DNA of 62,738 bases, the filler included, from Nemertoderma westbladi (lineage: Eukaryota > Animalia > Xenacoelomorpha), in assembly GCA_032718475.1 (NCBI GenBank). It is 3 parts of 3 records of this genome, joined end to end, with 100 filler letters (N's around TTAATTAATTAA, not from the genome) between each part and the next. Parts side by side here need not be neighbours in the genome. Positions count along the whole stretch, not along the records: positions 31,767 to 58,627 come from JAUCBJ010002713.1; 2 more parts are not named here. One strand, written 5' to 3'. Position numbers and translations under genes: made by a program. Positions 19,401 to 60,052 of this stretch are shown piece after piece. The notes under the pieces are model-generated. The model saw only the letters and a list, made by a program, of their open reading frames with translations. It did no database searches and was not told where the DNA came from. Each line of letters begins with the position of its first letter. The stretch's first letter is position 1.

Positions 19401-22400
19401 AAGGCCAGGCTCAAGGATTGCCCAGAGAAGGCCAGGATCAATGATAGCACTAAGATGGCCAGGCACAAAGATTCCCCAGTGAAGGCCAGGCACAAGGATA
19501 CCCCAGTGAAGGCCAGGCACAATGATAGCCCAGTGAAGGCCAGGCTCAAGGATAGCCCAGTGAAGCCCAGGCACAAGGATAGCGCAGTGAAGGCCAGGCT
19601 CAAGGATAGCCCAGTGAAGGCCAGGCTCAAGGATAGCCCAGTGAAGTTCAGGCTCAATGATAGCCCCGAGTCGACCAGTCTCAATGATAGCACTAAGATG
19701 GCCAGGCACAAAAATTCCCCAGTGAAGGCCAGGCACAAGGATTTACCAGTGAATGCCAGGAACAAGGATAGCCCAGTGAATGCCAGGCACAAGGATAGCC
19801 CAGTGAAGGTCAGGCTCAATGATAGCCCAGAGTCGACCAGACTCAATGATAGCACTAAGATGGCCAGGCACAAGGATAGCCCAGTGAAGGCCAGGCACAA
19901 GGATAGCCCAGCGAAGGTCAATGATAGCCCTGAGTCGGCCAGGCTCATTGATAGCCCTCGGTCGACCAGACTCAATGATAGCCCTGAGTCGGCCAGACTC
20001 AATGATAGCCCTGAGTCGGCCAGGCTCAATGAAAGCCCTGAGTCGGCCAGACTCAATGTTAGCAATACAATGATACCCCAGTGAAGGTCAGACTCAATGA
20101 TACCCCAGTGAAGGTCAGACTCAATGATACCCCTGAGTCGGCCAGGATCAATGATAGCACTAAGATGGCCAGGCACAAGGATACCCCAGTGAAGGCCATG
20201 CACAAGGATTTCCCAGTGAAGGCCAGGCACAAGGAAAGCCCAGTGAAGCTCAGGCTCGATGATAGCCCTGAGTCGACCAGACACAATGATAGCACTAAGA
20301 TGGCCGGGCACAAGGATACCCAATTGAAGGCCAGGGTCAAGGATACCCCAGTGAAGGCCAGGCTCAAGGATAGCCCTGAGTCGGAAGGACTAAATGATAG
20401 CCCTGAGTCGACCAGGCTAAATGATAGCACTAAGATGGCCAGGCACAAGGATAGCCCAGTGAAGGCCAGGCTCAAGGATAGCCCAGTGAAGGCCAGGCAC
20501 AAGGATAGCGCAGTGAAGACCAGGCTCAAGGATAGCCCAGTGAAGGCCAGGCTCAAGGATAGCCCAGTGAAGGCCAGGCTCAAGGATAGCAGAAGGCCAG
20601 GCACAACTATAGCCCAGTGAAGGCCAGGCTCAAGGATATCCCAGTGAAGGCCAGGCTCAAGGATAGCCCAGTGAAGGCCATGCTCAAGGATAACCCTGAG
20701 TCGGCCAGACTAAATGATAACCCTGAGTCGACCAGGCTCAATGATAGCCCTGAGTCGACCAGGATCAATGATAGCCCTGAGTCGGCCAGGCTTAATGATA
20801 GCACTAAGATGGCCAGGCACAAGGATACCCCAGTGAAGGCCAGGCACAAGGATACCCCAGAGAAGGCCAGGAACAATGATAGCCCAGTGAAGGCCAGGCT
20901 CAATGATATCCCTGAGTCGGCCAGACTCAATGATAGCTTTGAGTCGACCAGGCTCAATGATAGCTTTAAGTCGACCAAGCTCAAGGATACCCCTGAGTCG
21001 GCCAGGCTCAAGGATACCCCTGAGTCGGCCAGGCTCAATGATAGCCCTGAGTCGGCCAGGCTCAATGATAGCACTAAGATGGCCAGGCACAAGGATACCC
21101 CAGTGAAGGCCAGGCTCAATGATAGCCCTGAGTCGGCCAGGCTCAATAATAGCACTAAGATGGCCAGGCACAAGGATACCCCAGTGAAGGTCAGGCGCAA
21201 TGATAGCCCTGAGTCGATCAGACTCAATGATAACCCTGAGTCGGCCAGGCTCAATGATAGCACTAAGATGGCCAGGCACAAGGATACCCCAGTGAAGACC
21301 AGGCACAAGGATTTACCAGTGAATGCCAGGCACAAGGATAGCCCAGTGAATGCCAGGCACAAGGATAGACCAGTGAAGGTCAGGCTCAATGATAGCCCCG
21401 TGTCGACCAGACTCAATGATAGCACTAAGATGGCCAGGCACAAGGATAGCCCATTGAAGGCCAGGCACAAGGATAGCCCAGCGAAGGTCAGGCTCAATGA
21501 TAGCCCTGAGTCGGCCAGGCTCAATGATAGCCCTGAGTAGGCCAGACTCAATGATAGCCCTGAGTCGGCCAGGCTCAATGAAAGCCCTGAGTCGGCCAGA
21601 CTCAATGTTAGCAATACAATGATACCCCAGTGAAGGTCAGACTCAATGATACCCCTGAGTCGGCCAGGCTCAATGATAGCCCTGAGTCGGCCAGGCTCAA
21701 TGATAGCACTAAGATGGCCAGGTAAAAGGATACCACAGTGAAGGCCAGGCACAAGGATACCCCAGTGAAGGTCAGGCGCAATGAAAGCCCTGATTCGATC
21801 AGACTCAATGATAACCCTGAGTCGGCCAGGCACAATGATACCCCAGTGAAGGTCAGGCTTAATGATACCCCGGGGTTGGCCAGGCTCAATGAAAGCACTA
21901 AGATCGTCAGGCACAAGAATGCCACAGTGAAGGCCAGGCACAAGGATTCCCCAGTGAAGGCCAGGCATAAGGATAGCCCAGTGAACGCCAGGCTCAAGGA
22001 TAGCCCAGTGAAGTCCAGGGTCATTGTTACCCCAGTGAAGACCAGCCACAAGGATACCCCAGTGAAGGACAGGCACAAGGATAGCCCAGTGAAGGCCAGG
22101 CACAAGGATAGCCCAGTGAAGGTCAGGCTCAATGATAGCCCCGAGTCGACCAGTCTCAATGATAGCACTAAGATGGCCAGGCACAAAGATTCCCCAGTGA
22201 AGGCCAGGTACAAGTATACCCCAGTGAAGGCCAGGCACAATGATAGCCCAGTGAAGGCCAGGCTCAAGGATAGCCCAGTGAAGCCCAGGCACAAGGATAG
22301 CGCAGTGAAGGCCAGGCTCAAGGATAGCCCAGTGACGGCCAGGGACAAGGATAGCCCAGTGAAGGCCAGGGTCAAGGATACCCCAGTGAAGGCGAGGCTC

Positions 22401-24504
22401 AAGGATAGTCCTGAGTCGACCAGGCTCAATGATACCCCTGAGTCGGCCAGACTAAATGATAGCCCTGAGTCGACCATGCTCAATGATAGCACTATGATGG
22501 CCAGGCACAAGGATACCCCAGTGAAGGCCAGGCACAAGGATAGCCCAGTGAAGGCCAGGCTTAAGGATAGCCCAGTGAAGGCCAGGCACAAGGATAGCGC
22601 AGTGAAGGCCAGGCTCAAGGATAGCCCAGTGAAGGCCAGGCTCAAGGATAGCCCAGTGAAGGCCAGGCTCAAGGATTGCCCAGAGAAGGCCAGGATCAAT
22701 GATAGCACTAAGATGGCCAGGCACAAAGATTCCCCAGTGAAGGCCAGGCACAAGGATACCCCAGTGAAGGCCAGGCACAATGATAGCCCAGTGAAGGCCA
22801 GGCTCAAGGATAGCCCAGTGAAGCCCAGGCACAAGGATAGCGCGGTGAAGGTCAGGCTCAAGGATAGCCCAGTGAAGGCCAGGCTCAAGGATAGCCCAGT
22901 GAAGGTCAGGCTCAATGATAGCCCCGAGTCGACCAGTCTCAATGATAGCACTAAGATGGCCAGGCACAAAGATTCCCCAGTGAAGGCCAGGCACAAGGAT
23001 TTACCAGTGAATGCCAGGAACAAGGATAGCCCAGTGAATGCCAGGCACAAGGATAGCCCAGTGAATGCCAGGCACAAGGATAGCCCAGCGAAGGTCAGGC
23101 TCAATGATAGCCCTGAGTCGGCCAGGCTCAATGATAGCCCTCGGTCGACCAGGCTCAATGAAAGCCCTGAGTCGGCCAGACTCAATGTTAGCAATACAAT
23201 GATACCCCAGTGAAGGTCAGACTCAATGATACCCCTGATTCGGCCTGGCTCAATGATAGCCCTGAATCGGCCAGGCTCAATGATAGCACTAAGATGGCCA
23301 GGTAAAAGGATACCACAGTGAAGGCCAGGCACAAGGATACCCCAGTGAAGGTCAGGCGCAATGAAATCCCTGATTCGATCAGACTCAATGATAACCCTGA
23401 GTTGGCCAGGCTCAATGATAGCACTAAGATGGCCAGGCATAAGGATACCCCAGTGAAGACCAGGCACAAGGATTTACCAGTGAATGCCAGGCACAAGGAT
23501 AGCCCAGTGAAGGCCAGGCTCAATGATAGCCCTGAGTCGGCCAGGATCAATGATAGCACTAAGATGGCCAGGCACAAGGATACCCCAGTGAAGGCCAGGC
23601 ACAAGGATTTCCCAGTGAAGGCCAGGCACAAGGAAAGCCCAGTGAAGGTCAGGCTCGATGATAGCCCTGAGTCGACCAGACACAATGATAGCACTAAGAT
23701 GGCCGGGCACAAGGATACACCAGTGAAGGCCAGGCACAAGGATAGCCCAGTGAAGGCAGGCACAAGGATAGCCCAGTGAAGGAGGCCAGGCTAAAGGATA
23801 GCCCAGTGAAGGCCAGGCTCAAGTATACCCCAGTGAAGGCCAGGAACAAGGATAGCCCAGTGAAGGAGGCCAGGCTAAAGGATAGCCCAGTGAAGGCCAG
23901 GAACAAGGATAGCCCAGTGAAGGAGGCCAGGCTAAAGGATAGCCCAGTGAAGGCCAGGCTCAAGTATACCCCAGTGAAGGCCAGGAACAAGGATACCCCA
24001 GTGAAGGCTAGTCACAAGGATAGCCCAGTGAAGGCTAGTCACAAGGATAGCCCAGTGAAGGCCAGGCACAAGGATAGCCCAGTGAAGGCCAGCCACAAGG
24101 ATAGCCCAGTGAAGGTCAGGCTCAATTCTAGCCCAGTGAAGGCCAGGAACAAGGATAGCCCAGTGAAGGAGGCCAGGCTAAAGGATAGCCCAGTGAAGGC
24201 CAGGAACAAGGATAGCCCAGTGAAGGAGGCCAGGCTAAAGGATAGCCCAGTGAAGGCCAGGCTCAAGTATACCCCAGTGAAGGCCAGGCCAAAGGATAGC
24301 CCAGTGAAGGCCAGGCTCAAGTATACCCCATTGAAGGCCAGGCACAAGGATAGCCCAGTGAAGGTCAGGCTCAATGATAGCCCAGTGAAGGCCAGGCACA
24401 AGGATAGCCCAGTGAAGACCAGGCACAAGGATAGCCCAGTGAAGGCCAGGCACAAGGATAGCCCAGTGAAGGCCAGGCTCAAGGATAACCCAGTGAAGGT
24501 CAGG
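13473..24504. repeat. 27-bp satellite array (about 11 kb, about 400 units) with variant subfamilies and higher-order duplications
   Basis: Units aggccaggcacaaggatagcccagtga, gtcggccaggctcaatgatagccctga and a gcactaagatggcc variant. All ORF translations show 9-aa periodicity. Confidence 0.97.
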
Positions 24505-27500
24505 TAATTTGTATTTCTTTCAATAGAGCGGTTTATGCAAACATTATTAAACCGAAGAGGCCTTGATGTTTGCAACATGTGTTTACATAGGCCTACTGCA
24601 TGCCTGGTGTGTGTTCATAATATGATAATAATTTATTGGATGGACTGACATGTCATATTGTGTAGATAAATTTAGTAGCTATATTGTAAGAGCAAGCACA
24701 CGCACGCCTCCACATATAATGATATATTAAAATTTCTACCACACAGGAACACCCATACTGTAATGTAATGTAGGCCTGCCACAGTGTATACAGTTGGGCC
24801 TTCATACCGGTATACTAACGCACGCGGTGCAGAATATCTAATTATGTACTGAAGCGCGACTGAGTAATTGAACGAACTGAAGTTAACATTTAGTATTGAG
24901 AGTTAAGAGCTACTAATGTCCTGATTATCCAAGCGATTCGGGCCTTGTGATTTAACATGCAGTGCGACTAATCGCAAATCAGCTATAACCATATGCCCCC
25001 CTAAAAACATATTGTGTATAGTATGTAAAGCAGGTTTATTTATATACGAAATAAATATGTTATTCTTATAAATCGTTATTCTTATTATAATTCGCACGAA
25101 TTTACCCCACAATCGGGAGAAAAACGAGTACTTTTTCCCTAGTGATAAAAGTTATTAACATTGCGTAAAGGCAGCATCAGGAGTTGAAGAGTTCCATAAT
25201 TAGAAGTAAATTACTACAAAAAAGCAACAAAACTGTAATAAATAATTAGGAGCCCGCTCGACAGGCGGGATACTTACTGTAAAAATCTGTGGGATACTTA
25301 CTGTAAAAATCTCAGGATATATAACACTGACTGACTGACTGACTGATAATTATCTAGGTTCAGGCACTTCCTGCCTGGCGATTTTGTTGAAATTTTACAA
25401 GTACATTGCTTTGGTGGTTCATAATCGCGTTACAGAATATCAGATCAATTCAATGTGTGGTATTCGATATATTTCGTTTTTTTGAAATTATTTTGTCGCG
25501 AAATTAAAAGCAATGGTAAAGTAACAACTCCTGCCTGAGCTGCAGCAGCTAGCTGTGTAGAAATGGTTGAGTGCCGAGCTGCCTGAGATTGAATTCCATT
25601 AAGGCAGAATTTCGTGACTATACCCCTCCTGCTGCTGGCTGCTGGCTGAGTCTACACATCCTTTATCAGCTCTCAGGGATAGACAGAAAATAGTTGAGTT
25701 GTCAATAAACAAAATAAATTATACCACTGCAATAGGATTATATTATTATTCCAGGAATCATTGGGCTGATTATTTTGTATAGGATATACCGGTATGTAGA
25801 ATGATCTTAAAAATAATATTCTTATTTTTATTATTACATAGGATTAGCATCATTTTTTAGCTGAGCTGAAGCATTAACAGTGCAAATTAATTTAATTATA
25901 TTTTAATACCATTACTACATTGGCATACTGTAAGATAAGTTTTAACATTTCTTACAAATATTATAAAACTCAATTGTGGTGCGAGCATAAAACTCAAATC
26001 ACGCAAATTTAAAAGAACCGGGTGTGTTGTCATAAACATCTATCTCCATAGATTATTCTGCTTGACTGGGTCTGGGTGCGGCTTTGCTTTTGGGACGGGG
26101 TGCTGATTGAAAGGGGGGTTGAAGGGGGGAACTGTCCCCCCTTTTCACTTTGACTGATTTGCGGTTTTGTTAAATTTCTTGGATATAGTTGTTGTGATGC
26201 TAAAATTTAATTTGTCTTTGATAATGTATTATTTTGTTTTATATTGTTTAGACCTTAAATTTTCATAATATATTAGTTGAGTTTTTGTTTATACATTTGC
26301 TCTATAATATATTATATAATTTGTATTTATTCAAAAAATTGAATGAAATACTGTTATCACTATTATTATTTTACTAGGACTACTGACACTAATGTGGAAC
26401 AGGTAGGATATTTGCACTTTGTATGTGTTTTAGTTTTAGTAACTATAGCTACCCCTTTCTATTGTTAGTTTTGTTCTATAATGCAGCATTGGTTGATTGC
26501 CTTAGCAGCCGGTGTTGTAATATTCGTATGGAAATGGAGTCTGCATTTATAATATAGGGTGGTTCTATGGTGGGTTCAGGGTCATCACTCGCTCGGTGTC
26601 CTGGTTGTGCATCATGGGCATTTTTTCATAAATATTCGGTAATCTTAAATCTTGTAAACGTGCTTGATAATGAAATTATTTGCTTCATATTATATTTTTG
26701 TTAGTGGTAGCAAAGTTTAATTTTTTATTATGTGGGACGATCGACAAAGTCAGCTAGCCTCACGCCTTACAGTTTAGACAATTGTTTAGTTTAGGCCTAC
26801 TTACTAGGCCTACAGCTGACTGACTTAGTTCATTTGTAATAGTCTTGGCTAGGATTCTTCCCCCGGGTTCCTTCCAGCCAGCTTGCTGGCTTTCTAGTTA
26901 TAATGTTGAATTATATTGCAATGGTTCTTATATGTACAGTAATACTTAAATAGTAATGAAAAATTTTTTTTAATGCGTTGGACACAATGCAGTACAATTG
27001 TTTATTTATGTGACACTATTTATGATACCGGTCTTGGTGCGAATTAGCCAAACAAACTGTTATTGTTAGTGACGAATTCCTAGAGTTGTTTTGCTTTAAC
27101 GGAAGATAGATAGTTCTAGAACCTTTTAGAATATGTCCTCTGTGTATGAAATCTCAGTAGTTGGGTACTAAACCGTAATATAATTAGTATATTATAATTT
27201 AGATAGATGAATGCACTTAGTACACAGTAATAACTTTTCTTTTAAATATCGCCTTTATTGACCGCAAAAGTACGGATAATAAAGACTTCAATGTCCCATT
27301 TTAGGACAACAAAGTAACTATCCAATCAACCTTCCAATAATGCGAGTAATAAAATATTTATCCAATCAACGATCTAGAAGTGTATTCTTTTGAATTCGTA
27401 ATATTTTTCCTAGACCCAGTAATTACGTTGGCAATTTATAATAATAATTTAGAATTAAAATTAAGGTAAGTAGGATCGTTTGCTCCAGCAGCTAGTTTAA

Positions 27501-34110: not shown

Positions 34111-36199
34111 AGATTGTTCAAACCAAATGAAATGTGTTGGAGGGCGCGAGGGCGGCCCTCTACACTGGTTACTGGTATGGTTGTAGCTGTATGCTGGAGG
34201 CTACAGTTCTGCACGAAGGCCCCGGACCTGTTAGGTATTAAACCATTTACGATTATTAGGCGCCATCCAGCACATTCTACTGCCCTAGACGCGGCACCAT
34301 CAATCGTCATACTTTGTGATACATTTACTAGGATATCATACTTGCTCATTCCCAGAGTTTGTTATTGAGTTTCACGCGTCATTGATTTTCGACAAAGGTA
34401 ACATGGATGGTTTGGATGTTTGGGACCAGCACATTGACGCGGCGGGTAATTATTGTGAATCAGTGATCACACTGATTGGCCAGGTCCACAGTATCTTCTG
34501 GGTCTGCGATACTGTATGATCGATATTGTTTATTGAAAGTGATATCACGGATATCTTTAGAGCTAAGTTGTGAGTTAACGGTGTTAACATATGCGTGATA
34601 ATAACGCACGTATATTTGTTTGTGTAAATACAAAATCAATTTACACTGAGAAGGGTGGTTGTGTGGTGCAGGGTTTCGTCATTTTGTAGTTGACCCACGT
34701 AAATGCATTGAATGAGTTGATGTTAATATGTATAGGCCTACCATGGCCATGGGCTTACTTAGACCAAAACAGCATGCAGTAATATAAAAATTTTCACTTT
34801 CAGTCCACAGTTTCTGAAAATGCTTCAGTTTTTTTTTTGTATAACTGTTGCATGTTCCCAACCCAACCCCTTAAACATTGCAAGGCATCTATAACACAAT
34901 TTGGCGTCGACCACAAAACCGAGAAGGACCGTTGCTTAGAAACTGGTGACGGCTAGACTACATAAGAAGCCACCCTATAAAAAAAATTGTAAAAGTGAAA
35001 AAGGAAAAAATTTTAAGAACCAAGAATCGGGCAAACCTATCAATTTCCTTCTCTTAAGCGCGATACGCATGTAACAGTGAACGTGACTTGCATAAAAATA
35101 TTTGAAAATTGTTTTCTCGGCTTCGTTGTCCCACTTCATATGCGACAATCTAAATTTCCCTCTTTAGAAAGTTTCTATTCTAATGTCGATAATTACCTCA
35201 AAAAAATCTAGTCTCTGGAAAGTTTTGTGTTCATGTAACAAGTGAGTCCATGTACTGAAACGCCAATAGCCCGGCCTCACCTTGGCCTTTGGATATGATT
35301 CTTCCGTTGTTAGATAGAGGAAAGATTTATAGAAGACTTTAACCACTTTTGTCCAAAGTGGTCGGGAAATTGCCACTGACGATCCTGCAAAACCGCAACT
35401 ATCGTAAATACGTGAAAAATGCGAAAATTGCATTCCGTGTAACTATTTTATTATCAGGGCTGATCAACCCCTTCAATGTCCGTCAACATTTTTTAATAGA
35501 CCGATCTAAGGGATGGGACTAAAATCTGACGGAATAACATTTCAAGCTCTTACCTGTAACATGTTTTTATAAAAAACTTATGAAGATTTTTTAATTGGGT
35601 CTGTTTTTGGTCCCTGAAAGCAAAATTAAAAGTTCCGTGGCTCGGCTCCAATTGATTTTTTTCCCAAATTCCTTAAATACATAACGTTACAAAATTTATT
35701 GATACCAGCATACAAAATTTTATGAAATCGGAGACAACAAATTTTCAGATATTTTTTTCAACAACTTTGATGCCCACGGCATCCGCTTTTTCATCCGCTT
35801 TTTGCGAATTATAGAGCCCAAATTATTTTTGCAATATAGGCAATATAAAGTCAAATTAGGGTCGCTGATTCTGAATTTCAAGTCAGTTTTACATTTCTAT
35901 ATACGGTTCGACTTTTATAGCCCCCAGAATATCAACAAAATTAAAATTTTTTTCACTTTAAGATCAGCTAAAAACTTCTGTTCAGTCAATTCAAGGTCGA
36001 TTACAACGAATATTACAGAATGTGTGTATTCCATTTCGAAAAACCGGACTGGTTTTATAGGTCCACAAAGTTCTACGGTACAATAATGATTGATTTTTTA
36101 ACATTTTTGACAAAAACAAACTTCAGTAAAGTGAATTTTTCAATGTCAAAATCGCCTAGCTCTAACTGTATGGCATACTTTGAGTATTTTTATTCAACA

Positions 36200-36750
36200 G
36201 TTTAATTCCCATTGATAGGGCCTACGGTATTCTACTGAATTAATTCGCGAGATATATGATTAAACTAGCGAGAAAGTGATTAATCTCGCGAAAACAATTT
36301 GCGATTGGATGTTATTTGGGACAGCAGGAAAACAGCCATCCAATAGCAGCAGTGGAATTACCCTTACAGTTGCAATAGGATATACTGTACAGTATATTTT
36401 AATAGGTATTAAATAAATAAATAGGCCTTCTGTATCATTCATTCAGCATACAGTAACATACTGTAGTTCTGCCTCCTGTATAAAGGGACGTTGTGTCAAG
36501 TTTAAGGGGATGGATGTCTGTGGCTCCTGGCTCGGGCCCTATTCTGGACTGAATTATTGTTTTCAATTAATAATTTTCTCGCGAATTCAATCGTTCATTT
36601 CGCGAGGTTAATAATATTCTCGCGAGTTTAACCATTTATCTCGCGGAATTAATAATTTTCTCGCGAGTTTAACCATTTATAAATTTAGTATTTATCAATA
36701 TTTATCTATTCATTTTATAAATAAATTCAGAAGAATATCATGGGAATTAA
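36200..36750. mobile_element. Foldback/MITE-like element
   Basis: tttaattccca...gtattctactgaatt is inverted relative to aattcagaagaata...tgggaattaaa, with mirrored arrays of tctcgcga motifs inside. Confidence 0.55.
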
Positions 36751-36764
36751 AATGTGGGCCCATG

Positions 36765-36990
36765 TTAAGAATACCAGACTTTCTGCCATTATATTTCACT
36801 TTGCAGTTACCCCCATATGAAGAATACCAGACTTTCTACCGTTATATTTCACTTTGCAGTTACCCCCATGTGAAGAATACCAGAGTTTCTGCCGTTATAT
36901 TTCACTTTGCAGTTACCCCCATGTGAAGAATACCAGAGTTTCTGCCGTTATATTTCACTTTGCAGTTACCCCCATGTGAAGAATACCAGG
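36765..36990. repeat. 52-bp tandem repeat, about 4 copies
   Basis: gaagaataccagagtttctgccgttatatttcactttgcagttacccccatgt repeated, with an inverted partial copy near 37160-37188. Confidence 0.85.
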
Positions 36991-37722
36991 TTTTCACCAA
37001 AAACACAGGTTACAGAAGGGCTGAATATAACCAAAACAATAAACGAATAAGTATACAGGTTATAAGACAGAAATAAGCTGTATAAAACACTTAATAAAGA
37101 TAAATTTAAAAAAATAAAATATCTTCATATATAAAATTCCAATAAAAAGTCGACCGAAAAGTGAAATCCTGGTATTCATCATATGGGCGAAAATGTGGAA
37201 TTTAAATACTAAAAGTATGCCATATAACTGAAGCATATAAGTGAGATCCTCAACTTTAAAATAAAATGAGATTATTTATTACTGGTACTACTGTATAACT
37301 ACCATATATTTCATTTACTGTTGATATTAAAACTACACGAACGTAGTCTGATCTCGAATGAGTCGGAATGCACGGCGTAAGTTAAATACTCTATTGGATC
37401 ATATAAAAATGTTTCCCAAAAAAATTCAGTTCATGTAATTAAAACTATGTTAACTTTAGTTGAACTTAATGAAATATTGTGACTTTTTCTATTAATTTAG
37501 TCAGTTATACTTATTATTATTCTGGTTTTTATTTATTTATTTGGGTTATCGGGCCGAGACCCATTGTACTGTAGGCTACGTACATACTAATATATCATAC
37601 ACATTAGTAACACTACACAATAGCACAAGTATTACCTACCGTATAATTAGGTCATTACACATTAGGTCACAATTAGGTTTTAGGCCTAATTTATATTAAT
37701 TAAGATATAATTATTTACACAA

Positions 37723-39126
37723 ATGGCTGCAAAGGCAAGCAATTTCTTTAGCAAAAAAGAAGATAAACCCCACTCTGAAGCAAAGAGAGGAATATTGAGT
37801 AACTTTTTAAATTCCTTTTACGGGATGCAGTTCACTAATGTGAACGATTTAATAGATAATAAAAACTTCTACAGACCGGACGTAGGAGAAAATACGTTTG
37901 CGTGTTTTTATTTCGACCCTTTTAGTGGACAAGGGCGTTACCGAAATGATGACGATGGACCATCTCAAAACGTACTGGATGGTGACGTCCATATTGAACA
38001 TGGTTCCCCTATAATCGCTCTCACTAAGTGTAATACAATGTTACATCGGATGATGGCGTCTCAAGGTCATCAAATTCCTATAGATCCTGAGGAAGTCATT
38101 AACTCATGTCACTTCTATTTAGGTGAGGCTGATAAGAACAATTTTGCCATTCTTGTGGAAGTGGTGAAAGAGAGAATGAAGTTATTGGAATGGAGACCGG
38201 AGAATATTGTAATAGAAAGAAATCTTACAAAACTTTACTTTGTAAAAATATTTACCGGTATGCAAGAGATACAATTTAGAATCCGTCTCGATTTGTATAA
38301 TAAGAAGTTTGAAGATTGGGATTTGGAAATGTTCAAGAGATACAAAGGTGTTTTTTCATTTATCGACCCATTTGGCCTAGATTTTACAATGAACCAGTTG
38401 GAATATTTGATGGGAGATACAAAATTTATATTTGTAAATCTTATGGTTCAGACTATAAACCGATTCAACCAGAACCTATACTCGCTACTTGGGAAAGTTT
38501 ACGGTGGAGATGGTTGGCAAAATGCATATAAAAGATATGATGATGAAATCATATCTGTAAACGGCAAACTGAAGATTCTCGTCGAACAATTTGAACTGAA
38601 ATTGAAATCATTTGACAAGAGAGGAAGAACGAGAACTGTATCCTTCGCAATGAGAAAAGGCAAGACAACGCCTAAGACAAACACTTTGTATTATCTGGTA
38701 TTCGTTACTAACGGATACAATTCTATAAACAAAATGAAAGGTGATATGATGAAATATACCGTACCGGAGGGTAAAGAACTCGCGTTCAGCGATTATTATT
38801 TCCATAAGGGGATAGACACACCCCTCGGAGGGAAAACTGACGACAATGGGGAAGCAAAAGTGATATTTCCGTTATTTAGAGGACAAAAAGATGTTAAGTT
38901 GGGAGAAATAAAGGCCAGAATTTTAGATGAAACTCCCTTCCCGTATCATGCGAAGGCCCTGAAGTTTCTAGAAAATGGAGGGTATATAACGAAGGTGACA
39001 GTTCCGGAGGGAGAAATACGCCGCCGCGGCACATTTAGAAACGAGGTTAGTTACAGTCCGGATGCCGAGGATACTGAAAAACATCTATATGGGAATTATT
39101 GGACGGTTGATTTCGCTGACGGATAA
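37723..39126 (+). CDS. tcmP: Intronless TcmP-like (three-Cys-motif partner) protein, putative SAM-dependent methyltransferase fold with C-terminal winged helix
   Basis: 467-aa non-repetitive ORF in AT-rich DNA with Kozak-like acaaATGG. Ordered motifs HSEAKRGIL, YFDPFSGQGRY, GSPIIAL, FYLGEAD, FSFIDPFG, YGGDGW, YYLVFVTN...KMK and ETPF...KALKFLENGG match my recollection of prokaryotic TcmP proteins. Family call is by eye. Confidence 0.8.
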   Translation: MAAKASNFFSKKEDKPHSEAKRGILSNFLNSFYGMQFTNVNDLIDNKNFYRPDVGENTFACFYFDPFSGQGRYRNDDDGPSQNVLDGDVHIEHGSPIIALTKCNTMLHRMMASQGHQIPIDPEEVINSCHFYLGEADKNNFAILVEVVKERMKLLEWRPENIVIERNLTKLYFVKIFTGMQEIQFRIRLDLYNKKFEDWDLEMFKRYKGVFSFIDPFGLDFTMNQLEYLMGDTKFIFVNLMVQTINRFNQNLYSLLGKVYGGDGWQNAYKRYDDEIISVNGKLKILVEQFELKLKSFDKRGRTRTVSFAMRKGKTTPKTNTLYYLVFVTNGYNSINKMKGDMMKYTVPEGKELAFSDYYFHKGIDTPLGGKTDDNGEAKVIFPLFRGQKDVKLGEIKARILDETPFPYHAKALKFLENGGYITKVTVPEGEIRRRGTFRNEVSYSPDAEDTEKHLYGNYWTVDFADG

Positions 39127-39262
39127 ATTATCGACGACCTGGAAAGACATTCAGACAACAAAAAGAGCCGAAAACGAAAGAGAAGCAACACGGATTCTGG
39201 ATGAGGGAATTCACAGGATTCAACCATAAAATTCAAACTTACATTTTTGAAATAATGATTAA

Positions 39263-39911
39263 GGGGGGGGGGGGGGGGGGGGGTTGGGTTGACTATTAAA
39301 CCAAAAATGTTCGTTCCCTTATTTAGGAGATTAATTTAGGAGGAAATTTATTGACATTTGGTAAACATGTAGGCCTGTAGAATAGGTTAATAAAAAAATT
39401 TCGAATTTTTTACCTAATTAACATAATTTATGCAAAACAATTTTAAAATGCAAAGGCTCTTAGAGGGATGGTCATCAAGTGCCCAAAATTTCATCATTTG
39501 TGCAGAATGGCATGCTAAATCAACCCTATGACCAGAATTTTGATAAATTTTTATGTTCAAAAATTATTTTAAAAAACCGATTTTTTGGCCAAATTTTGAC
39601 AGAATTTGCCATTTTTTACCAAAAATTGACACATTTTGTTAAATATTTGAGCTATAATAATGAATATCAAAAAAGTGGCATAGGGGGTGTTAAGCATCAC
39701 CCATTCATCATTCGAACCAAATTTCACACAAAGTCGTTCATTCTTAGTTTTATAGTTTAGTTTTATCACTCATAACTTTTGAACTACACTAGCTAATAAC
39801 AAACGGCTTGAAGTTTTCAAATCACCATAAAAATCTGCACTAGAGGGGATTGAAAATGAAAAATCTATTTTTTTTTGAATTAGTCAACCCCCCCCCCCCC
39901 CCCCCCCCCCC
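39263..39911. mobile_element. MITE with poly-G/poly-C termini (Kolobok-like)
   Basis: TTAA-G(n)ttgggttgacta ... tagtcaaC(n)-TTAT inverted ends. Confidence 0.65.
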
Positions 39912-39929
39912 TTATCTTAGCTTCTTAAT

Positions 39930-40342
39930 TGTTATCTTAAATGTTATGGTGAATGTTATTAATTATTATCGTAAATGTTATGGTGAATGTTATTAATTAT
40001 TATCGTAAATGTTATGTTGAATGTTATTATTTATTATCTTAAATGTTATGTTGAATGTTATTATTTATTATCTCAATTGTTATGGTGAATGTTATTATTT
40101 ATTATCTCAAATGTTATGGTGAATGTTATTATTTATTATCTTAAATATTATGGTGAATGTTATTATTTAATATTTTAAATGTTATGGTGAATGTTATTAT
40201 TTATTATCTTAAATGTTATGGTGAATGTTATTATTTATTATCTTAAATGTTATGGTGAATGTTATTATTTATTATCTTAAATGTTATGGTGAATGTTATT
40301 ATTTATTATCTTAAATGTTATGGTGAATGTTATTATTTATCA
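39930..40342. repeat. 31-bp AT-rich minisatellite
   Basis: ttatcttaaatgttatggtgaatgttattattta repeated about 13 times, with further copies near 41280-41335. Confidence 0.9.
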
Positions 40343-40596
40343 TCTTGCCGTGTCTGGTGTATTCCAAAAGTCACTGGGGTTGAACAATTCTCATTGGAGT
40401 ACCTCTTCATGGGTTCTGCGTTTTGTTTTGTAGAGATTTAAAAGTTCAATATTAAATTTTTTATTAAATACTGTATAAAGTTTTTGTGGTTTTTGTTAAT
40501 TTAGGTATTTTTGTATTTTGCTGGTATTGTACCTTTGGTGTTTTCTTTTGTTATTAATTTTGGTATTAATTATTTTTTATTAATTCAGGTAACTCC

Positions 40597-41245
40597 CTTA
40601 TTAACTCAGGGTCCTCCCTCGTTAACTCAGGGACCACCCTCGTTAGCTCAGGGTCCACCCTCGTTAACTCAGGGGCCACCCTCGTTAACTCAGGGACCAC
40701 CCTCGTTAACTCAGGGACCACCCTCGTTAGCTCAGGGTCCACCCTCGTTAGCTCAGGGGCCACCCTCGTTAACTCAGGGTCCACCCTCGTTAGCTCAGGG
40801 ACCACCCTCGTTAACTCAGGGACCACCCTCGTTAGCTCAGGGTCCACCCTCGTTAGCTCAGGGGCCACCCTCGTTAACTCAGGGTCCACCCTCGTTAGCT
40901 CAGGGGCCACCCTCGTTAACTCAGGGACCACCCTCGTTAACTCAGGGACCACCCTCGTTAGCTCAGGGTCCACCCTCGTTAGCTCAGGGGCCACCCTCGT
41001 TAACTCAGGGACCACCCTCGTTAGCTCAGGGTCCACCCTCGTTAACTCAGGGACCACCCTCGTTAACTCAGGGACCACCCTCGTTAACTCAGGGACCACC
41101 CTCGTTAACTCAGGGACCACCCTCGTTAGCTCAGGGGCCACCCTCGTTAACTCAGGGACCACCCTCGTTAACTCAGGGACCACCCTCGTTAGCTCAGGGG
41201 CCACCCTCGTTAGCTCAGGGACCACCCTCGTTAGCTCAGGGACCA
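40597..41245. repeat. 21-bp minisatellite (ccctcgttaactcagggacca), about 30 copies
   Basis: Seen directly; it produces the SLTQGPP repeat ORF. Confidence 0.95.
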
Positions 41246-41759
41246 ATAATGATTACCTTAGCTTCTTATTTGTTTTCTTAAATATTATGGTGAATGTTAT
41301 TATTTATTACCATAAATGTCATGGTGAATTTGTTATCGGTTATTATAAAATAATATAAACCCATCTTATTATTTATCTTAAATTATGGTAGGTAAGTTAC
41401 AACTCAAGCTCAAACTCAAACTACAAGTCAAGCTGTCAACTGGGTGGAGGGTTTGTAAAAATCAAATTATTTATTATTACATTTATATTTTTCTGAAAAA
41501 AATTATTTTTCCTCACTTAAATTTTACAGTGCAGAATAGTGAATTTCACGACTTTAATGCTCTTTACCTACGAATTAAAAATTAAAACACAAACCTGCTC
41601 AGCTCAGAGACAAAGAGACATAGGAGGAAAAATAATTGTAGTGATTGTAAAAATCGGTACCAGTAAACTGTATCGATACCAGTACATTATTGCACCGGTA
41701 ACAGTGCACTGGTATCTTCCGCTTCATTAAATGTGGTTTACTCTGGTTCCCTTATTAAA

Positions 41760-44453: not shown

Positions 44454-45125
44454 AAAGGACACAAACAAAAATAAATGTCCGTCGTTTATTGATTTAGTTT
44501 ACAAACATATCAACGACCGAGTTGTGCGTTGATAATTTTCGATCTATTATGACGCCACCTCTTCAAAAACTATACAAATTTTATTGACAAGTCTACGCGG
44601 CGGTTCAAATTTTACAACATTGACAAAAATCTTGGACATTAAATTCCTTAAAGTGTTACGTGCCATATACATAAATAGATAGAGAGATCTCTCACAGACA
44701 TTAGTTACTGACAGTACCTCTTCCATTTCTTTGAGCGCGTTCAACCATAATATAAATTATGTATGCTACTACTACTACTAGATATAGGTGGTGTTTGTCC
44801 TACCATTCTCCATTGGATTAGTTTGGTTAGCGTTGATGCCTATCATTGAGTTACAGGGTTCGAATCTCACAATAGCGGTTTTTGTAAGCCTATTAGCACA
44901 CACTGTTACGCTACTATGGCAATGATGATTATTGACAAGCATATGTCTGAAAATTATGTTGAAAATAATTCTATTCTGAGCCATCCAACAACTATAATTT
45001 ATTTTTTAATCAGCTCATATCTCTAATTATATTGGAAGTCGTCTACAATTAATTAAAATACAATATAATTAGGTATATTTATGACATACCGGTAACATAA
45101 ATATATCAATAATTGTTTACTCTGG

Positions 45126-48100
45126 TCATCTACCACCGTTCAGTGTCAGCTACCACCTGGCAGTGTCAGCTACCACCTGGCACTGTCAGCTACCACCTGG
45201 CAGTGTCCGCTACCGTCTGGCAGTGTTCGCTACCGTCTGGCAGTGTCAGCTACCGACTGGTAGTGTCAGCTACCGACTGGTAGTGTCAGCTACCGCCTGG
45301 CGCTGGCAGTGTCTGCCACCGCATGGCCGTGTCAGCTACCGCCTGGCAGTGTCAGCTACCACCTGGCAGTGTCAGCTACCACCTGGCAGTGTCAGCTACC
45401 GACTGGTAGTGTCAGCTACCGTCTGGCTGTGTCAGCTACCGTCTGGCTGTGTCAGCTACCGTCTGGCTGTGTCAGCTACCGTCTGGCTGTGTCAGCTACC
45501 GTCTTACAGAGTCAGCTACCACCTGGCAGTGTCAGCTACCACCTGGCAGTGTCAGCTACCACCTGGCAGTGTCCGCTACCGTCTGGCAGTGTTCGCTACC
45601 GTCTGGCAGTGTCAGCTACCGACTGGTAGTGTCAGCTACCGACTGGTAGTGTCAGCTACCGCCTGGCTGTGTCAGCTACCGTCTGGCAGTGTCAGCTACA
45701 GTCTGGCAGTGTCTGCTACCGTCTGGCAGTGTCTGCTACCGTCTGGCAGTGCCATCTACCGTCTGGTTGTGTCAGCTACCGTCTTACAGAGTCAGCTACC
45801 GTTTGACTGTGTCAGCTACGGCCTGACTGTGTCAGCTACCGCCTGGCGCTGGCAGTGTCTGCCACCGCATGGCCGTGTCAGCTACCGTCTGGCAGTGTCA
45901 GCTACCGTCTGGCAAGGTCAGCTACCGCCTGGTTGTGTCAGCTACCGCCTGGTAGTGCCAGCTACCGTCTTGCTGTTCAGCTACCGTCTGGCTGTGTCAG
46001 CTACCGTCTGGCAGTGTCTGCTACCGTCTGGCAGTGTCTGCTACCGTCTGGCAGTGCCATCTACCGTCTGGTTATGTCAGCTACCGTCTTACAGAGTCAG
46101 CTACCGTTTGACTGTGTCAGCTACGGTCTGACTGTGTCAGCTACCGCCTGGCGCTGGCAGTGTCTGCCACCGCCTGGCCGTGTCAGCTACAGTCTGGCAG
46201 TGTCAGCTACCGTCTGGCAAGGTCAGCTACCGCCTGGTTGTGTCAGCTACCGTCTGGCTGTTCAGCTACCGTCTGGCTGTGTCAGCTACCGTCTGGCAGT
46301 GTCTGCTACCGTCTGGCAGTGTCTGCTACCGTCTGGCAGTGCTATCTACCGTATGGTTATGTCAGCTACCGTCTTACAGAGTCAGCTACCGTTTGACTGT
46401 GTCAGCTACGGTCTGACTGTGTCAGCTACCGCCTGGCCGTGTCAGCTACCGTCTGGCAGTGTCAGCTACCGCCTGGTTGTGTCAGCTACCGTCTGGTAGT
46501 GCCAGCTACCGTCTGGCTGTGTCAGCTACCGTCTGGCTGTGTCAGCTACCGTCTGGCTGTGTCAGCTACCGTCTTACAGAGTCAGCTACCGTCTGGCAGT
46601 GTTAGCTACCGTCTGGCTGTGTCAGCTACCGTCTGGCAGTGCCAGCTACCGTCTTGCAGAGTCAGCTACCGCCCGGCTGTGTCAGCTACCGTCTTACAGA
46701 GTCAGCTACCGTCTGGCAGTGGTAGCTACCGTCTGGCTGTGTCAGCTACCGTTTGGCAGTGTCAGCTACCGTCTGGCAGTGCCAGCTACCGTCTTGCAGA
46801 GTCAGCTACCGTCTGGCCGTGTCAGCTACCATCTGGCAGTGCCAGCTACCGTCTTGCAGAGTCAGCTACCGTCTGGCCGTGTCAGCTACCATCTGGCAGT
46901 GTCAGCTACCGTCTGTCAGTTAGAGCTACCGTCTGGCAGTTTAGGCTACCGGCTTACAGTGTCAGCTACCGCCTGGCAGTGTCAGCTACCGTCTGGCAGT
47001 GTCAGCTACCGTCTGGCAGTGCCAGCTACCGTCTTGCAGAGTCAGCTACCGTCTGGCCGTGTCAGCTACCATCTGGCAGTGTCAGCTACCGTCTGGCAGT
47101 TTGAGCAACCGTCTGGCAGTGCCAGCTACCGTCTTGCAGAGTCAGCTACCGTCTGGCCGTGTCAGCTACCATCTGAAAGTGTCAGCTACCGTCTGGCAGT
47201 TTGAGCTACCGTCTGGCAGTTTGAGCTACCGGCTTACAGTGTCAGCTACCGTCTGGCAGTGTCAGCTACCGTCTGGCTGTGTCAGCTACCGTCTGGCTGT
47301 GTCAGCTACCGTCTGGCAGTGTCAGCTATTGTCTGGCTGTGTCGGCTACCGTCAGGCAGTGTCAGCTACCGCCTGGCTGTGTCAGCTATTGTCTGGCTGT
47401 GTCAGCTACCGTCTGGTGGCGCCAGCTACCGCCTGGCTGTGTCAGCTATTGTCTGGCAGTGTCAGCTACCGCCTGGCTGTGTCGGCTACCGTCTGGCAGT
47501 GTCAGCTACAGTCTGGCAGTGTCAGCTATTGTCTGGCAGTGTCAGCTACCGTCAGGCAGTGTCAGCTACCGCCTAGCTGTGTCAGTTATTGTCTGGCTGT
47601 GTCAGCTACCGCCTGGTTGTGTCAGCTACCGTCTGGCAGTGTCAGCTATTGTCTGGCTGTGTCAGCTATTGTCTGGCTGTGTCAGCTACCGTCTGGTAGT
47701 GCCAGCTACCGTCAGGCAGTGTCAGCTACCGCCTGGCTGTGTCAGCTATTGTCTGGCTGTGTCAGCTACCGCCTGGTTGTGTCAGCTACCGTCTGGCAGT
47801 GTCAGCTATTGTCTGGCTGTGTCAGCTCCCGCCTGGTTGTGTCAGCTACCGTCTGGCAGTGTCAGCTATTGTCTGGCTGTGTCAGCTACCGCCTGGCTGT
47901 GTCAGCTATTGTCTGGCTGTGTCAGCTACCGCCTGGTTGTGTCAGCTACCGCCTGGCTCTGTCAGCTATTGTCTGGCTGTGTCAGCTATCGCCTGGTTGT
48001 GTCAGCTACCGTCTGGCAGTGTCAGCTATTGTCTGGCTGTGTCAGCTACCGCCTGGCTGTGTCAGCTATTGTCTGGCTGTGTCAGCTACCGCCTGGCTGT

Positions 48101-51052
48101 GTCAGCTATTGTCTGGCTGTGTCAGCTACCGCCTGGCTGTGTCAGCTACCGCCTGGCAGTGTCAGCTACCGCCTGGCTGTGTCAGCTATTGTCTGGCTGT
48201 GTCAGCTACCGCCTGGCTGTTTCAGCTACCGCCTGGTTGTGTCAGCTACCGCCTGGTTGTGTCTGCTACCGCCTGGCAGTGTCAGCTATTGTCTGGCTGT
48301 GTCAGCTACCGCCTGGCTGTGTCAGCTACCGCCTGGCAGTGTCAGCTACCGCCTGGTTGTGTCAGCTATTGTCTGGCTGTGTCAGCTACCGCCTGGTTGT
48401 GTCAGCTACCGCCTGGTTGTGTCAGCTACCGTCTGATTGTGTCAGCTACAGTCTGATTGTGTCAGCTATTGTCTGGCTGTGTCAGCTACCGCCTGGTTGT
48501 GTCAGCTACCTTTCTGATTGTGTCAGCTACCGTCTGATTGTGTCAGCTATTGTCTGGCTGTGTCAGCTACCGTCTGGCTGTGTCAGCTACCGTCTGGCTG
48601 TGTCAGCTACCGTCTGGCTGTGTCAGCTACCGCCTGGCTGTGTCAGCTATTGTCTGGCTGTGTCAGCTACCGCCTGGTTGTGTCAGCTACCTTTCTGATT
48701 GTGTCAGCTACCGCCTGGTTGTGTCAGCTACCGTCTGATTGTGTCAGCTATTGTCTGGCTGTGTCAGCTACCGTCTGGCTGTGTCAGCTACCGTCTGGCT
48801 GTGTCAGCTACCGTCTGGCTGTGTCAGCTACCGCCTGGCTGTGTCAGCTATTGTCTGGCTGTGTCAGCTACCGCCTGGTTGTGTCAGCTACCTTTCTGAT
48901 TGTGTCAGCTACCGTCTGATTGTGTCAGCTATTGTCTGGCTGTGTCAGCTACCGTCTGGCTGTGTCAGCTACCGCCTGGTTGTGTCAGCTACCGTCTGAT
49001 TGTGTCAGCTATTGTCTGGCTGTGTCAGCTACCGTCTGGCTGTGTCAGCTACCGTCTGGCTGTGTCAGCTACCGTCTGGCTGTGTCAGCTACCGCCTGGC
49101 TGTGTCAGCTACCGACCGTCTGGCTGTGTCAGCTACCTCCTGGCTGTGTCAGCTACCGCCTGGCTGTGTCAGCTATTGTCTGCCTGTGTCAGCTACCGTC
49201 TGATTGTGTCAGCTACCGTCTGATTGTGTCAGCTATTGTCTGGCTGTGTCAGCTACCGTCTGGCTGTGTCAGCTACCGCCTGGTTGTGTCAGCTACCGTC
49301 TGATGGTGTCAGCTATTGTCTGGCTGTGTCAGCTACCGTCTGGCTGTGTCAGCTACCGCCTGGCTGTGTCAGCTACCGCCTGGCTGTGTCAGCTATTATC
49401 TGGCTGTGTCAGCTACCGTCTGATTGTGTCAGCTATTGTCTGGCTGTGTCAGCTATTGTCTGGCTGTGTCAGCTACCGCCTGGCTGTGTCAGCTATTGTC
49501 TGGCTGTGTCAGCTACCGCCTGATTGTGTCAGCTATTGTCTGGCTGTGTCAGCTATTGTCTGGCTGTGTCAGCTATTGTCTGGCTGTGTCAGCTACCGTC
49601 TGGCTGTGTCAGCTACCGTCTGGCTGTGTCAGCTACCGCCTGGTTGTGTCAGCTATTGTCTGGCTGTGTCAGCTACCGTCTGGCTGTGTCAGCTACCGCC
49701 TGGTTGTGTCAGCTACCGCCTGGCTGTGTCAGCTATTGTCTGGCTGTGTCAGCTACCGCCTGGTTGTGTCAGCTACCGTCTGATTGTGTCAGCTATTGTC
49801 TGGCTGTGTCAGCTACCGTCTGGCTGTGACAGCTACCACCTGGTTGTGTCAGCTACCGTCTGATTGTGTCAGCTACCGTCTGGCTGTGTCAGCTACCGTC
49901 TGGCTGTGTCAGCTACCGTCTGGCTGTGTCAGCTACCGCATGGTTGTGTCAGCTACCGTCTGGCTGTGTCAGCTACCGTCTGGCTGTGTCAGCTACCGTC
50001 TGGCTGTGTCAGCTACCGTCTGGCAGTGTCAGCTACCGCCTGGCTGTGTCAGCTATTATCTGGCTGTGTCAGCTACCGCCTGGTTGTGTCAGCTACCGTC
50101 TGATTGTGTCAGCTATTGTATGGCTGTGTCAGCTACCGTCTGGCTGTGTCAGCTACCGCCTGGTTGTGTCAGCTACCGTCTGATTGTGTCAGCTATTGTC
50201 TGGCTGTGTCAGCTACCGTCTGGCCGTGACAGCTACCGCCTGGCAGTGTCAGCTACCGTCTGGCAGTGTCAGCTATTGTCTGGCAGTGTCAGCTACCGTC
50301 TGCCTGTGTCAGCTACCGTCTGCCTGTGTCGGCTACCGTCTGGCAGTGTCAGCTACCGTCTGGCAGTGTCAGCTACCGTCTGGCAGTGTCAGCTACCGTC
50401 TGGCACTGTCAGCTACCGTCTGGCAGTGTCAGCTACCGTCTGGCAGTGTCAGCTACCGTCTGGCAGTGTCAGCTACCGTCTGGCAGTGTCAGCTACCGTC
50501 TGGCAGTGTCAGCTACCGTCTGGCAGTGTCAGCTACCGTCTGGCAGTGTCAGCTACCGTCTGATTGTGTCAGCTATTGTCTGGCTGTGTCAGCTACCGTC
50601 TGGCCGTGTCAGCTACCGCCTGGCAGTGTCAGCTACCGTCTGGCAGTGTCAGCTATTGTCTGGCAGTGTCAGCTATTGTCTGGCAGTGTCAGCTACCGTC
50701 TGCCTGTGTCGGCTACCGTCTGGCAGTGTCAGCTACCGTCTGGCAGTGTCAGCTACCGTCTGGCAGTGTCAGCTACCGTCTGGCAGTGTCAGCTACCGTC
50801 TGGCAGTGTCAGCTACCGTCTGGCTGTGTCAGCTACCGTCTGGCAGTGTCAGCTATTGTCTGGCTGTGTCAGCTATTGTCTGGCTGTGTCGGCTACCGTC
50901 TGCCTGTGTCGGCTACCGTCTGGCAGTGTCAGCTACCGTCTGGCAGTGTCAGCTACCGTCTGCCTGTGTCGGCTACCGTCTGGCAGTGTCAGCTACCGTC
51001 TGGCAGTGCCAGCTACCGTCTGACAGTATCAGCTACCGTCTGACAGTGTCAG

Positions 51053-51068
<16 letters not shown>
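45126..51068. repeat. 20-bp satellite array (gtcagctaccgtctggcagt), about 5.9 kb, about 295 units
   Basis: Exact 20-bp periodicity visible; the last unit overlaps the GFUS stop codon. Confidence 0.97.
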
Positions 51069-53747
<2,679 letters not shown>

Positions 53748-59322: not shown

Positions 59323-60052
59323 AATACAGTAATAATTGTCAATTAATAATAAATGAACCCGTGTATGTCTGTATGTCAGTGCTGGGTGTAGGTGGTAGCC
59401 AGGCCGCTAGCCAGGTAGCCAGGACATTATGAGTGATTTGAACGGACAAGAAAAATTATTGTCATAAATAAACCAGTGTCATTATTAACTACTTTCAATA
59501 TAGTGCGAATGTAACTATTATGTGGATAGTGTGAGACTGTTACTGTAACGCAAATCCCGCGACGTTGATTGGCCAGACGCCTAGTTCTAATTAGTTGTAG
59601 TTGTAGTTAGTTTGTATTTAGACAGTGCCAATAGTGGATTTGATCGACTGATATTATATTGATTAGAGATTTGAAGGGTTTTCTAAAATGACTTTACCTG
59701 TTGTGTGATTTGATTAAATTGCGGAAGATCCGAGAGTTGAACCAAATTCAACCAAGTAATATCCATAATCCACTTCTTTGGTCTAGCCTCGACAGCGTTG
59801 ATATCCAATGTAGCGCCACCTAGAGAATATATATGCATTATGTAATTAAATTATATATTATATATATATTATTATTATATTATATATATAAAAATTAAAT
59901 TATTACATAAATATGTATTATGTAACGCAGAAAAACCCGTATTATTACATAATTTATTGCATATAAAAATCCTCCAACTCTATACATTTCAAGTAAACAC
60001 AGAATGTGTGATATAAAACACGCCAACAACCCTCGAAATCACGGGGTGTGAA

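Follow-up and report, generated by a model that had tools for sequence, protein, structure and literature searches.

A TcmP-family gene in the Nemertoderma westbladi genome and its relatives in other animals

The locus and its surroundings

We analysed a window of 62,738 nucleotides (filler included) from the genome assembly of Nemertoderma westbladi (GCA_032718475.1), in which a preliminary description had placed a prokaryote-type TcmP methyltransferase-like gene. The gene and the elements around it are the following:

36169..37224, no strand assigned: nested inverted-repeat and 53-bp tandem elements, very high copy, upstream of the ORF (summed depth up to 10^5)
37723..39126, plus strand: TcmP-family ORF, 467 aa from ATG to TAA, intronless coding sequence (AlphaFold2 model with mean pLDDT 84.9 and pTM 0.88)
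39127..39204, plus strand: 25 in-frame open codons beyond the TAA that include a K/R cluster; probably a former C-terminal tail, or else a read-through extension
39223..39950, no strand assigned: MITE-like element, high copy, with G-run terminal inverted repeats (arms 39223-39283 and 39890-39950), directly downstream of the ORF
51053..53747, minus strand: GFUS (GDP-L-fucose synthase) host gene with three exons and two GT-AG introns

The ORF is uninterrupted over 467 codons and free of introns, as first reported. Its surroundings are eukaryotic, comprising a BEL/Pao retrotransposon, LINE reverse transcriptase and endonuclease fragments, the GFUS gene and elements with terminal inverted repeats on both sides of the ORF; the summed depth of the MITE-like element ranges from hundreds to more than 1,000. 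Since the GFUS gene has three exons joined across GT-AG introns, the contig was marked as eukaryotic. The MITE flanks, LINE fragments and spliced GFUS gene that had been claimed were thus recovered, whereas a claimed SINE was not: there was no tRNA gene in 24500-51000 and no SINE-related Rfam match in 24500-45000.

Elsewhere in the window, the BEL/Pao LTR retrotransposon (2702-11225, minus strand) retains pieces of gag (DUF1759), protease, reverse transcriptase, Peptidase_A17 and integrase in long ORFs. Large GC-rich tandem arrays with long stop-free frames occupy 13400-24600, 40570-41280, 45085-51050 and 60050-61710, and the array ending near 51050 adjoins the last GFUS codons. A match resembling the C/D-box snoRNA SNORD27 (44917-44983, plus strand; 45.9 bits against a gathering score of 52, E 1.9e-5) sits just before a 20-bp tandem array and may mark an intron of an unannotated host gene.

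The stretch was found in four of the eight listed runs (X1-X4), which come from three samples and three studies under one organism label, one of them possibly the source; it was not found in two other organisms from the same study. All four runs carry the ORF at 99% identity or more, with allelic differences. In X1, X2 and X4 it lies on a single contig, from 37540 to 39179-39250, with 1, 5 and 17 other letters, respectively, while in X3 it is in three pieces. X3 covers 37590-39250 and the repeats, but not the unique flank at 35000-36639, a pattern that could fit an RNA library, although its type had been guessed as DNA. No RNA run appeared among those listed with the stretch, which speaks neither for nor against expression. 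The unequal depths of ORF and flank seen in X1 and X2 were left out of account, contig depth not being copy number and the depth in X4 being equal. The contigs of all four runs stop at repeats and none of them connects the ORF with a neighbouring host gene, so that host linkage rests on the assembly and on the recurrence of alleles. Together with the eukaryotic flanks, the alleles from three studies support the claim that the gene resides in a eukaryotic genome rather than in a contaminant.

Family assignment, fold and predicted chemistry

The protein matched the NCBIfam profile TIGR04474 (TcmP) with 67.1 bits against a cut-off of 53 (E 2.2e-18, model positions 2-261 of 263), in agreement with the family first proposed for it. 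A Pfam scan of the 467-aa protein gave no match above cut-off; a 'Collar' match of 16.8 bits, below cut-off, was dismissed as chance. The protein features, all on the plus strand, are as follows:

37735..38718, plus strand: class I Rossmann methyltransferase domain (approximately residues 5-332), from structural alignment of the AlphaFold2 model
37771..37785, plus strand: N-terminal motif H17-x3-K21, both residues present in all 31 prokaryote/phage rows
37915..37935, plus strand: motif I, SAM-binding glycine loop D65-P-F-S-G69-Q-G71, from the alignment
38002..38010, plus strand: GSP motif (residues 94-96), common to RlmJ, from the alignment
38125..38127, plus strand: acidic E135 of motif II, predicted SAM ribose contact; all 31 prokaryote/phage rows have E or D here, as do 32 of the 33 animal-clade rows
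38365..38376, plus strand: motif IV D215-P-F-G, predicted catalytic, Trm1 type, D in 32 of 33 animal-clade rows
38842..39114, plus strand: C-terminal winged-helix-like domain (approximately residues 374-464) in the model, counterpart of Pfam PF22560 (GMT-wHTH)

The family motifs (H-x3-K, DxFxGxG, GSP, the acidic motif II and DPFG) are all kept and, as first reported, in order. H17, K21, motif I, GSP, E135 and D215-P-F-G are conserved in the animal-clade and prokaryote/phage groups alike; equivalents of H17 and K21 occur in 25 and 26 of the 33 animal-clade rows, most of the remaining rows having gaps there. Judging from the alignment, K21 is likely the counterpart of K18, given as the catalytic residue of RlmJ motif X in the accessible part of PMC3814359.

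The model is that of a class I methyltransferase, in line with the SAM-binding Rossmann fold anticipated earlier, and its nearest structures are RlmJ and Trm1. VIA-align gave Z 14.5 for RlmJ (rmsd 4.0, 224 aligned) and Z 14.1 for Trm1 (rmsd 3.6, 220 aligned), approximately 1.5-2 units above the next family, and Foldseek ranked Trm1 first (E 3.6e-4), with RlmJ at E 1.2e-3. Motif IV reads DPFG in four of five archaeal Trm1 (DPYG in the fifth) and DPPF or DPPY in both RlmJ compared. The best VIA-align rows for the C-terminal domain were winged helices at weak scores (Z 5-6), and the C terminus aligns with those of prokaryotic TcmP proteins. PF22560 scored above cut-off on the prokaryotic relatives P0001 and P0115, and not on the present protein. 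On the model, the domain is likely a winged helix. Our guess is that 'GMT' in the Pfam name stands for 'guanine methyltransferase'.

Both RlmJ and Trm1 methylate an exocyclic purine amine, according to the accessible parts of PMC3814359 and PMC4033218. From the DPFG motif and the likeness of the fold to these two enzymes, we predict purine amino-methylation, with guanine N2 ahead of adenine N6. The target base is a motif-level guess, because RlmJ and Trm1 are tied and profile-profile scores are weak: hhalign against small Trm1 and RlmJ alignments gave a probability below 9%, too weak to choose. A PDB sequence search with the prokaryotic profile returned only noise. Guanine N2 would be the leading target at somewhat less than an even chance, adenine N6 would come second as a weaker candidate, a binder devoid of catalysis would be a minor prospect and some other substrate a slighter one. 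DNA is slightly favoured over RNA as the predicted nucleic acid; the prokaryotic partners speak for DNA and the nearest structures for RNA. In the literature searched, mostly open papers in their main texts without supplements, no activity was found for any TcmP.

Relatives, partner genes and origin

Of 1.84 billion representatives searched, 145 matched at E<=0.001. The best relatives are long proteins of 420-550 aa (E down to 2.8e-62, 30-40% identity), and the 360-380 aa prokaryotic form enters only from E 3e-11. Exact-sequence lookup of 29 relatives yielded four with names, from Hydra vulgaris, Mytilus trossulus, Anneissia japonica and Mercenaria mercenaria. A search with a profile of the subclade gave 29 matches, of which 11 were named and all of these animal, adding Amphiura, Sinanodonta, Ruditapes and Dreissena; two word-index protein searches had poor recall (one and seven matches). 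The named relatives total 13 proteins, all animal and on contigs of 0.2-131 Mb. Their hosts are eight species in three phyla: Hydra, two echinoderms and five bivalves, among which Mercenaria has five copies. It is for these 13 proteins, rather than for most rows of the clade that contains them, that animal origin was established; vertebrates, insects and nematodes do not figure among the 13, which is not an absence test. The TIGR04474 cut-off was passed by 12 of 13 animal-clade proteins scanned, and UniRef already labels the Sinanodonta protein 'Three-Cys-motif partner protein'. OTU protease domains occur in the Mytilus protein and in P0064. One TcmP-family protein of Mercenaria (P0066) is labelled 'biorientation of chromosomes in cell division protein 1-like 1', a label that its lysine-rich tail probably explains.

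A capture confined to one lineage, conceptually like the N4-cytosine methyltransferase of bdelloid rotifers, had been proposed for this gene. Because named copies occur across Hydra, five bivalves and two echinoderms, we replace that view with one of a broad family. TcmP itself is a known family; what appears undescribed is its presence in cnidarians, molluscs and echinoderms. The literature searched held no account of animal TcmP, within the same limits of mostly open main texts without supplements; the source paper of the Pfam 'GMT' name was not among them and may mention eukaryotic members. In the portions available, PMC4738411, PMC8195603, PMC3765255, PMC10853773, 10.1101/2025.09.30.679545 and 10.64898/2026.10.19.760177 do not mention the family, and in PMC12445080 and PMC12429752 it appears in tables only.

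In a FastTree analysis of 96 rows (at least 300 profile columns), the query and the named animal proteins shared a clade of 54 rows. A quick IQ-TREE of 69 chosen rows put 34 animal-clade rows on one side of a branch (SH-aLRT 92). In a careful tree these 34 rows plus P0130 were split from 31 prokaryote/phage rows at 88/98, the 34 alone forming one side in 52% of bootstrap trees, and the query sat within an 11-row group with Hydra (100/98). A constrained topology, with the query grouped among the 31 prokaryote/phage rows plus three long rows of ambiguous position, was rejected (p-AU 5.3e-6, LG+G4), so that, for the sampled sequences, the direct prokaryote-to-host transfer first envisaged does not hold. 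Inheritance across eukaryotes, named at the outset as evidence against horizontal acquisition, was found in part, within animals, given the broad animal family and the rejected grouping. A prokaryotic ancestry of the animal family, also claimed earlier, remains likely from the breadth of TcmP in archaea, bacteria and phages (approximately 850 stretches estimated, 80 kept). No donor is named, because the tree is unrooted and its prokaryotic rows are a sample chosen by similarity. The gene tree is discordant with the species tree, Amphiura nesting among bivalves and Anneissia standing apart; the separated echinoderm proteins fit deep paralogy with loss, or transfer between animals. P0064 (with its OTU domain), P0120, P0117 and P0130 are long, eukaryote-looking TcmP proteins that fall beyond the animal clade or on its margin, and they hint at further independent eukaryotic acquisitions.

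A metagenome scan with 122 pattern matches yielded six loci of a eukaryote (L002-L007). They have one to three copies each, three in tandem in L004 and two in L002 and L005; in L002 and in L004 the leading copy appears to be broken. Of the GT-AG introns in these loci, three were checked; one L004 copy has 528 open codons when spliced against 66 unspliced. Among nine pairs, dN/dS was 0.22-0.27 in five (p<=0.0014) and 0.48-0.56 in three (two of them significant); the ninth gave 1.74 from only seven changes. From these spliced tandem paralogues with low dN/dS, at least one eukaryote has therefore domesticated the family and maintains it by purifying selection, a result that applies to the L002-L007 relatives and not to the locus at 37723-39126.

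The radical-SAM (DUF5131) partner said to accompany prokaryotic TcmP is real and more varied than claimed. A radical-SAM-like gene neighbours TcmP at 68 of 80 prokaryotic genome loci and 12 of 13 viral loci; the partners at genome loci are DUF5131 (48), spore-photoproduct-lyase-like (SPL-like; 19) and PA0069-like (5), 61 of them within 300 bp, and a Gordonia phage carries the same pair. The TcmP pairs with SPL-like and PA0069-like genes lie in L008-L087 (e.g. L058:2211-3218 and L070:5132-5974). In the eukaryotic sequence, tblastn of 59 DUF5131 proteins against positions 1-51000 of the window and L002-L007 gave no convincing partner, the sole match being 40 aa long (E 0.007) and inside a tandem repeat, and no candidate ORF for a partner was present in 24.5-46 kb. 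The TcmP pair matches the PADLOC candidates PDC-M30 and PDC-M41, whose components PDC-M30A and M41A match an archaeal TcmP and the Sinanodonta protein; PADLOC gave no match on the query protein. PDC systems are described as predicted candidates in 10.1101/2024.01.29.577857, whose main text, as far as it was accessible, mentions neither M30 nor M41.

The present copy, its interpretation and known systems

The gene had been called intact. Its ORF is indeed open throughout, but a basic stretch follows the TAA, and run X3 lacks one base at codon 335, immediately past the end of the methyltransferase core. Open 25 codons and a basic NLS-like cluster occur together at 0.33% of 28,874 flank positions, and basic tails are found in 10 of 34 animal-clade rows and in none of the 31 prokaryote/phage rows. 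From its sequence, the stretch is probably a former C-terminal tail cut by a secondary stop or, alternatively, a read-through extension. As the TAA is common to the contigs of all four runs, with no other letter there, an early loss of the tail is probable, read-through being the alternative. Between X4 and the window allele there are 8 non-synonymous and 4 synonymous codon differences (1101 and 300 sites), too few to gauge constraint. The window has G370 where three runs have the R of the subclade. At 37720, X2 and X4 have an extra G before the start codon, which places a purine at -3 and gives a better Kozak context than that of the window allele. The post-stop basic tail and the X3 frameshift are signs of relaxed constraint, and the present copy may be decaying; we put its being functional at marginally above an even chance.

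We consider it probable that the gene is nuclear and belongs to a TcmP family spread across animals, which likely goes back to a single ancient acquisition from a prokaryote, and that the gene encodes a predicted nucleic-acid methyltransferase acting on an exocyclic purine amine, most likely guanine N2. Family membership, the modelled fold, the intact motifs, the animal distribution and the spliced tandem paralogues under purifying selection are the directly observed parts of this reading.

Alternatively, the family could be functional elsewhere and the present locus have arisen from a spliced parent as a retrocopy now in decay or as a young pseudogene, which we regard as unlikely. The lack of introns, compared with intron-bearing relatives, would suit such an origin, but no poly(A) tract follows the stop and no closer parent emerged (the best relative is 38% identical, and the listed ORF contigs amount to one allele per run). 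Stopping before the basic tail would suit it too, yet several relatives likewise stop right after the final W-x-x-x-F motif. The X3 frameshift and the mostly non-synonymous allele differences have to be set against 467 open codons in which every catalytic motif is kept.

We give still less credit to the idea that the family travels as cargo in an as yet unrecognised mobile element of animals, or in an endogenous DNA virus, which spreads between invertebrates and methylates its own DNA, the present copy being a solitary leftover. An intronless solitary copy amid MITEs is what this would predict, but within 24.5-46 kb there is no long ORF besides low-complexity repeats. OTU domains are common cargo of transposons and viruses. 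The OTU protease fusions (P0058, P0064) and the discordance of gene and species trees count in its favour, as does the precedent of the methyltransferases of DIRS1 elements (PMC4738411, accessible part), whereas the copies in L002-L007 are spliced tandem paralogues and not element genes. Scans of viral contigs with the query and the subclade found no relative, BFVD gave no match at E<=0.001, and the 13 viral loci are of a distant phage type, nearly all paired with a radical-SAM gene. That the gene passed recently and directly from a prokaryote or phage into this lineage, or that it is a mis-joined contaminant, is largely refuted and highly improbable: the intronless ORF, the missing bridging contig and the bacterial nature of the largest Atlas clusters resembling the query protein would fit, but prokaryotic relatives are only 24-33% identical, the AU test rejects the grouping, alleles recur in three studies and not in the two other organisms from the same study, there is no partner gene or operon context, and sigma-70 sites number 7 against 8.1 in shuffles, not above chance.

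Under the preferred reading of an old animal methyltransferase family, SAM would bind at motifs I and II, the winged helix would hold nucleic acid, and the target base would flip into the pocket. There, in the way described for RlmJ, D215 of DPFG together with K21 would activate the amine so that the methyl group is transferred directly, and the enzyme would act without the radical-SAM partner of prokaryotes. Its role would possibly be defence against viruses or transposons, which we infer from the lineage-specific expansions, the tandem arrays with broken copies, the OTU fusions, the basic tails and the PADLOC-candidate pair. The fullest form of this proposal, that many invertebrates use an ancient, prokaryote-derived and partner-free DNA guanine-N2 methyltransferase family against viruses or transposons, is speculative and improbable as a whole.

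Of the preliminary interpretation, the family, fold, prokaryotic partner, ancestry and residence stand, and the lineage-restricted scale does not; the interest lies in the whole family rather than in a single locus. Although TcmP is widespread among bacteria, archaea and phages, the literature searched gave no biochemical function for it, and its animal members are hidden under 'uncharacterized protein' labels. The three-phylum clade, expansions, introns and purifying selection suggest that animals have long kept an enzyme of a prokaryotic conflict system. The family offers a partner-free enzyme and named hosts with genomes and tissue (Hydra, Mercenaria and Mytilus), in which methylated guanine or adenine is predicted to track with gene presence. 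If the prediction of a nucleic-acid methyltransferase is true, this is an overlooked modifying enzyme in animals; DNA guanine-N2 methylation, if true, would be a new enzymatic mark in animal DNA, where it is not established.

The closest known system is the long TcmP form of TIGR04474 with GMT-wHTH, which has the same H-x3-K, DxFxGxG, GSP and DPFG motifs and a likely counterpart of the C-terminal winged-helix-like region. Compared with prokaryotic TcmP, the present protein is approximately 100 aa longer, with several insertions and 24-33% identity, and its gene lies in a eukaryotic genome with no DUF5131 or SPL-like radical-SAM gene nearby. Trm1, the tRNA (guanine-26-N2) dimethyltransferase (PF02005), is the top Foldseek match and has, in four of five archaeal proteins, the same motif IV, but is only approximately 11% identical, and its PF02005 profile gives no match. 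RlmJ, the 23S rRNA m6A2030 methyltransferase (PF04378), gives a weak sequence match (E 0.25) that spans motif I, GSP and the N-terminal motif, and the catalytic Lys/Asp pair described for it is likely common to both proteins. The present protein, however, has an extra winged-helix-like domain, and DPFG in place of the motif IV (D/N)PP(Y/F/W) of RlmJ and DNA m6A methyltransferases. E. coli RlmJ showed no methylation of the single-stranded DNA that was tried (for these RlmJ properties, PMC3814359, accessible part). The N4CMT of bdelloid rotifers is likewise a prokaryote-derived amino-methyltransferase domesticated in an invertebrate. It belongs to a different family with a different predicted base, and is reported for bdelloids with a chromodomain fusion and shown activity, whereas animal TcmP spans three phyla, has no chromodomain and has a predicted activity (PMC8885841, accessible part).
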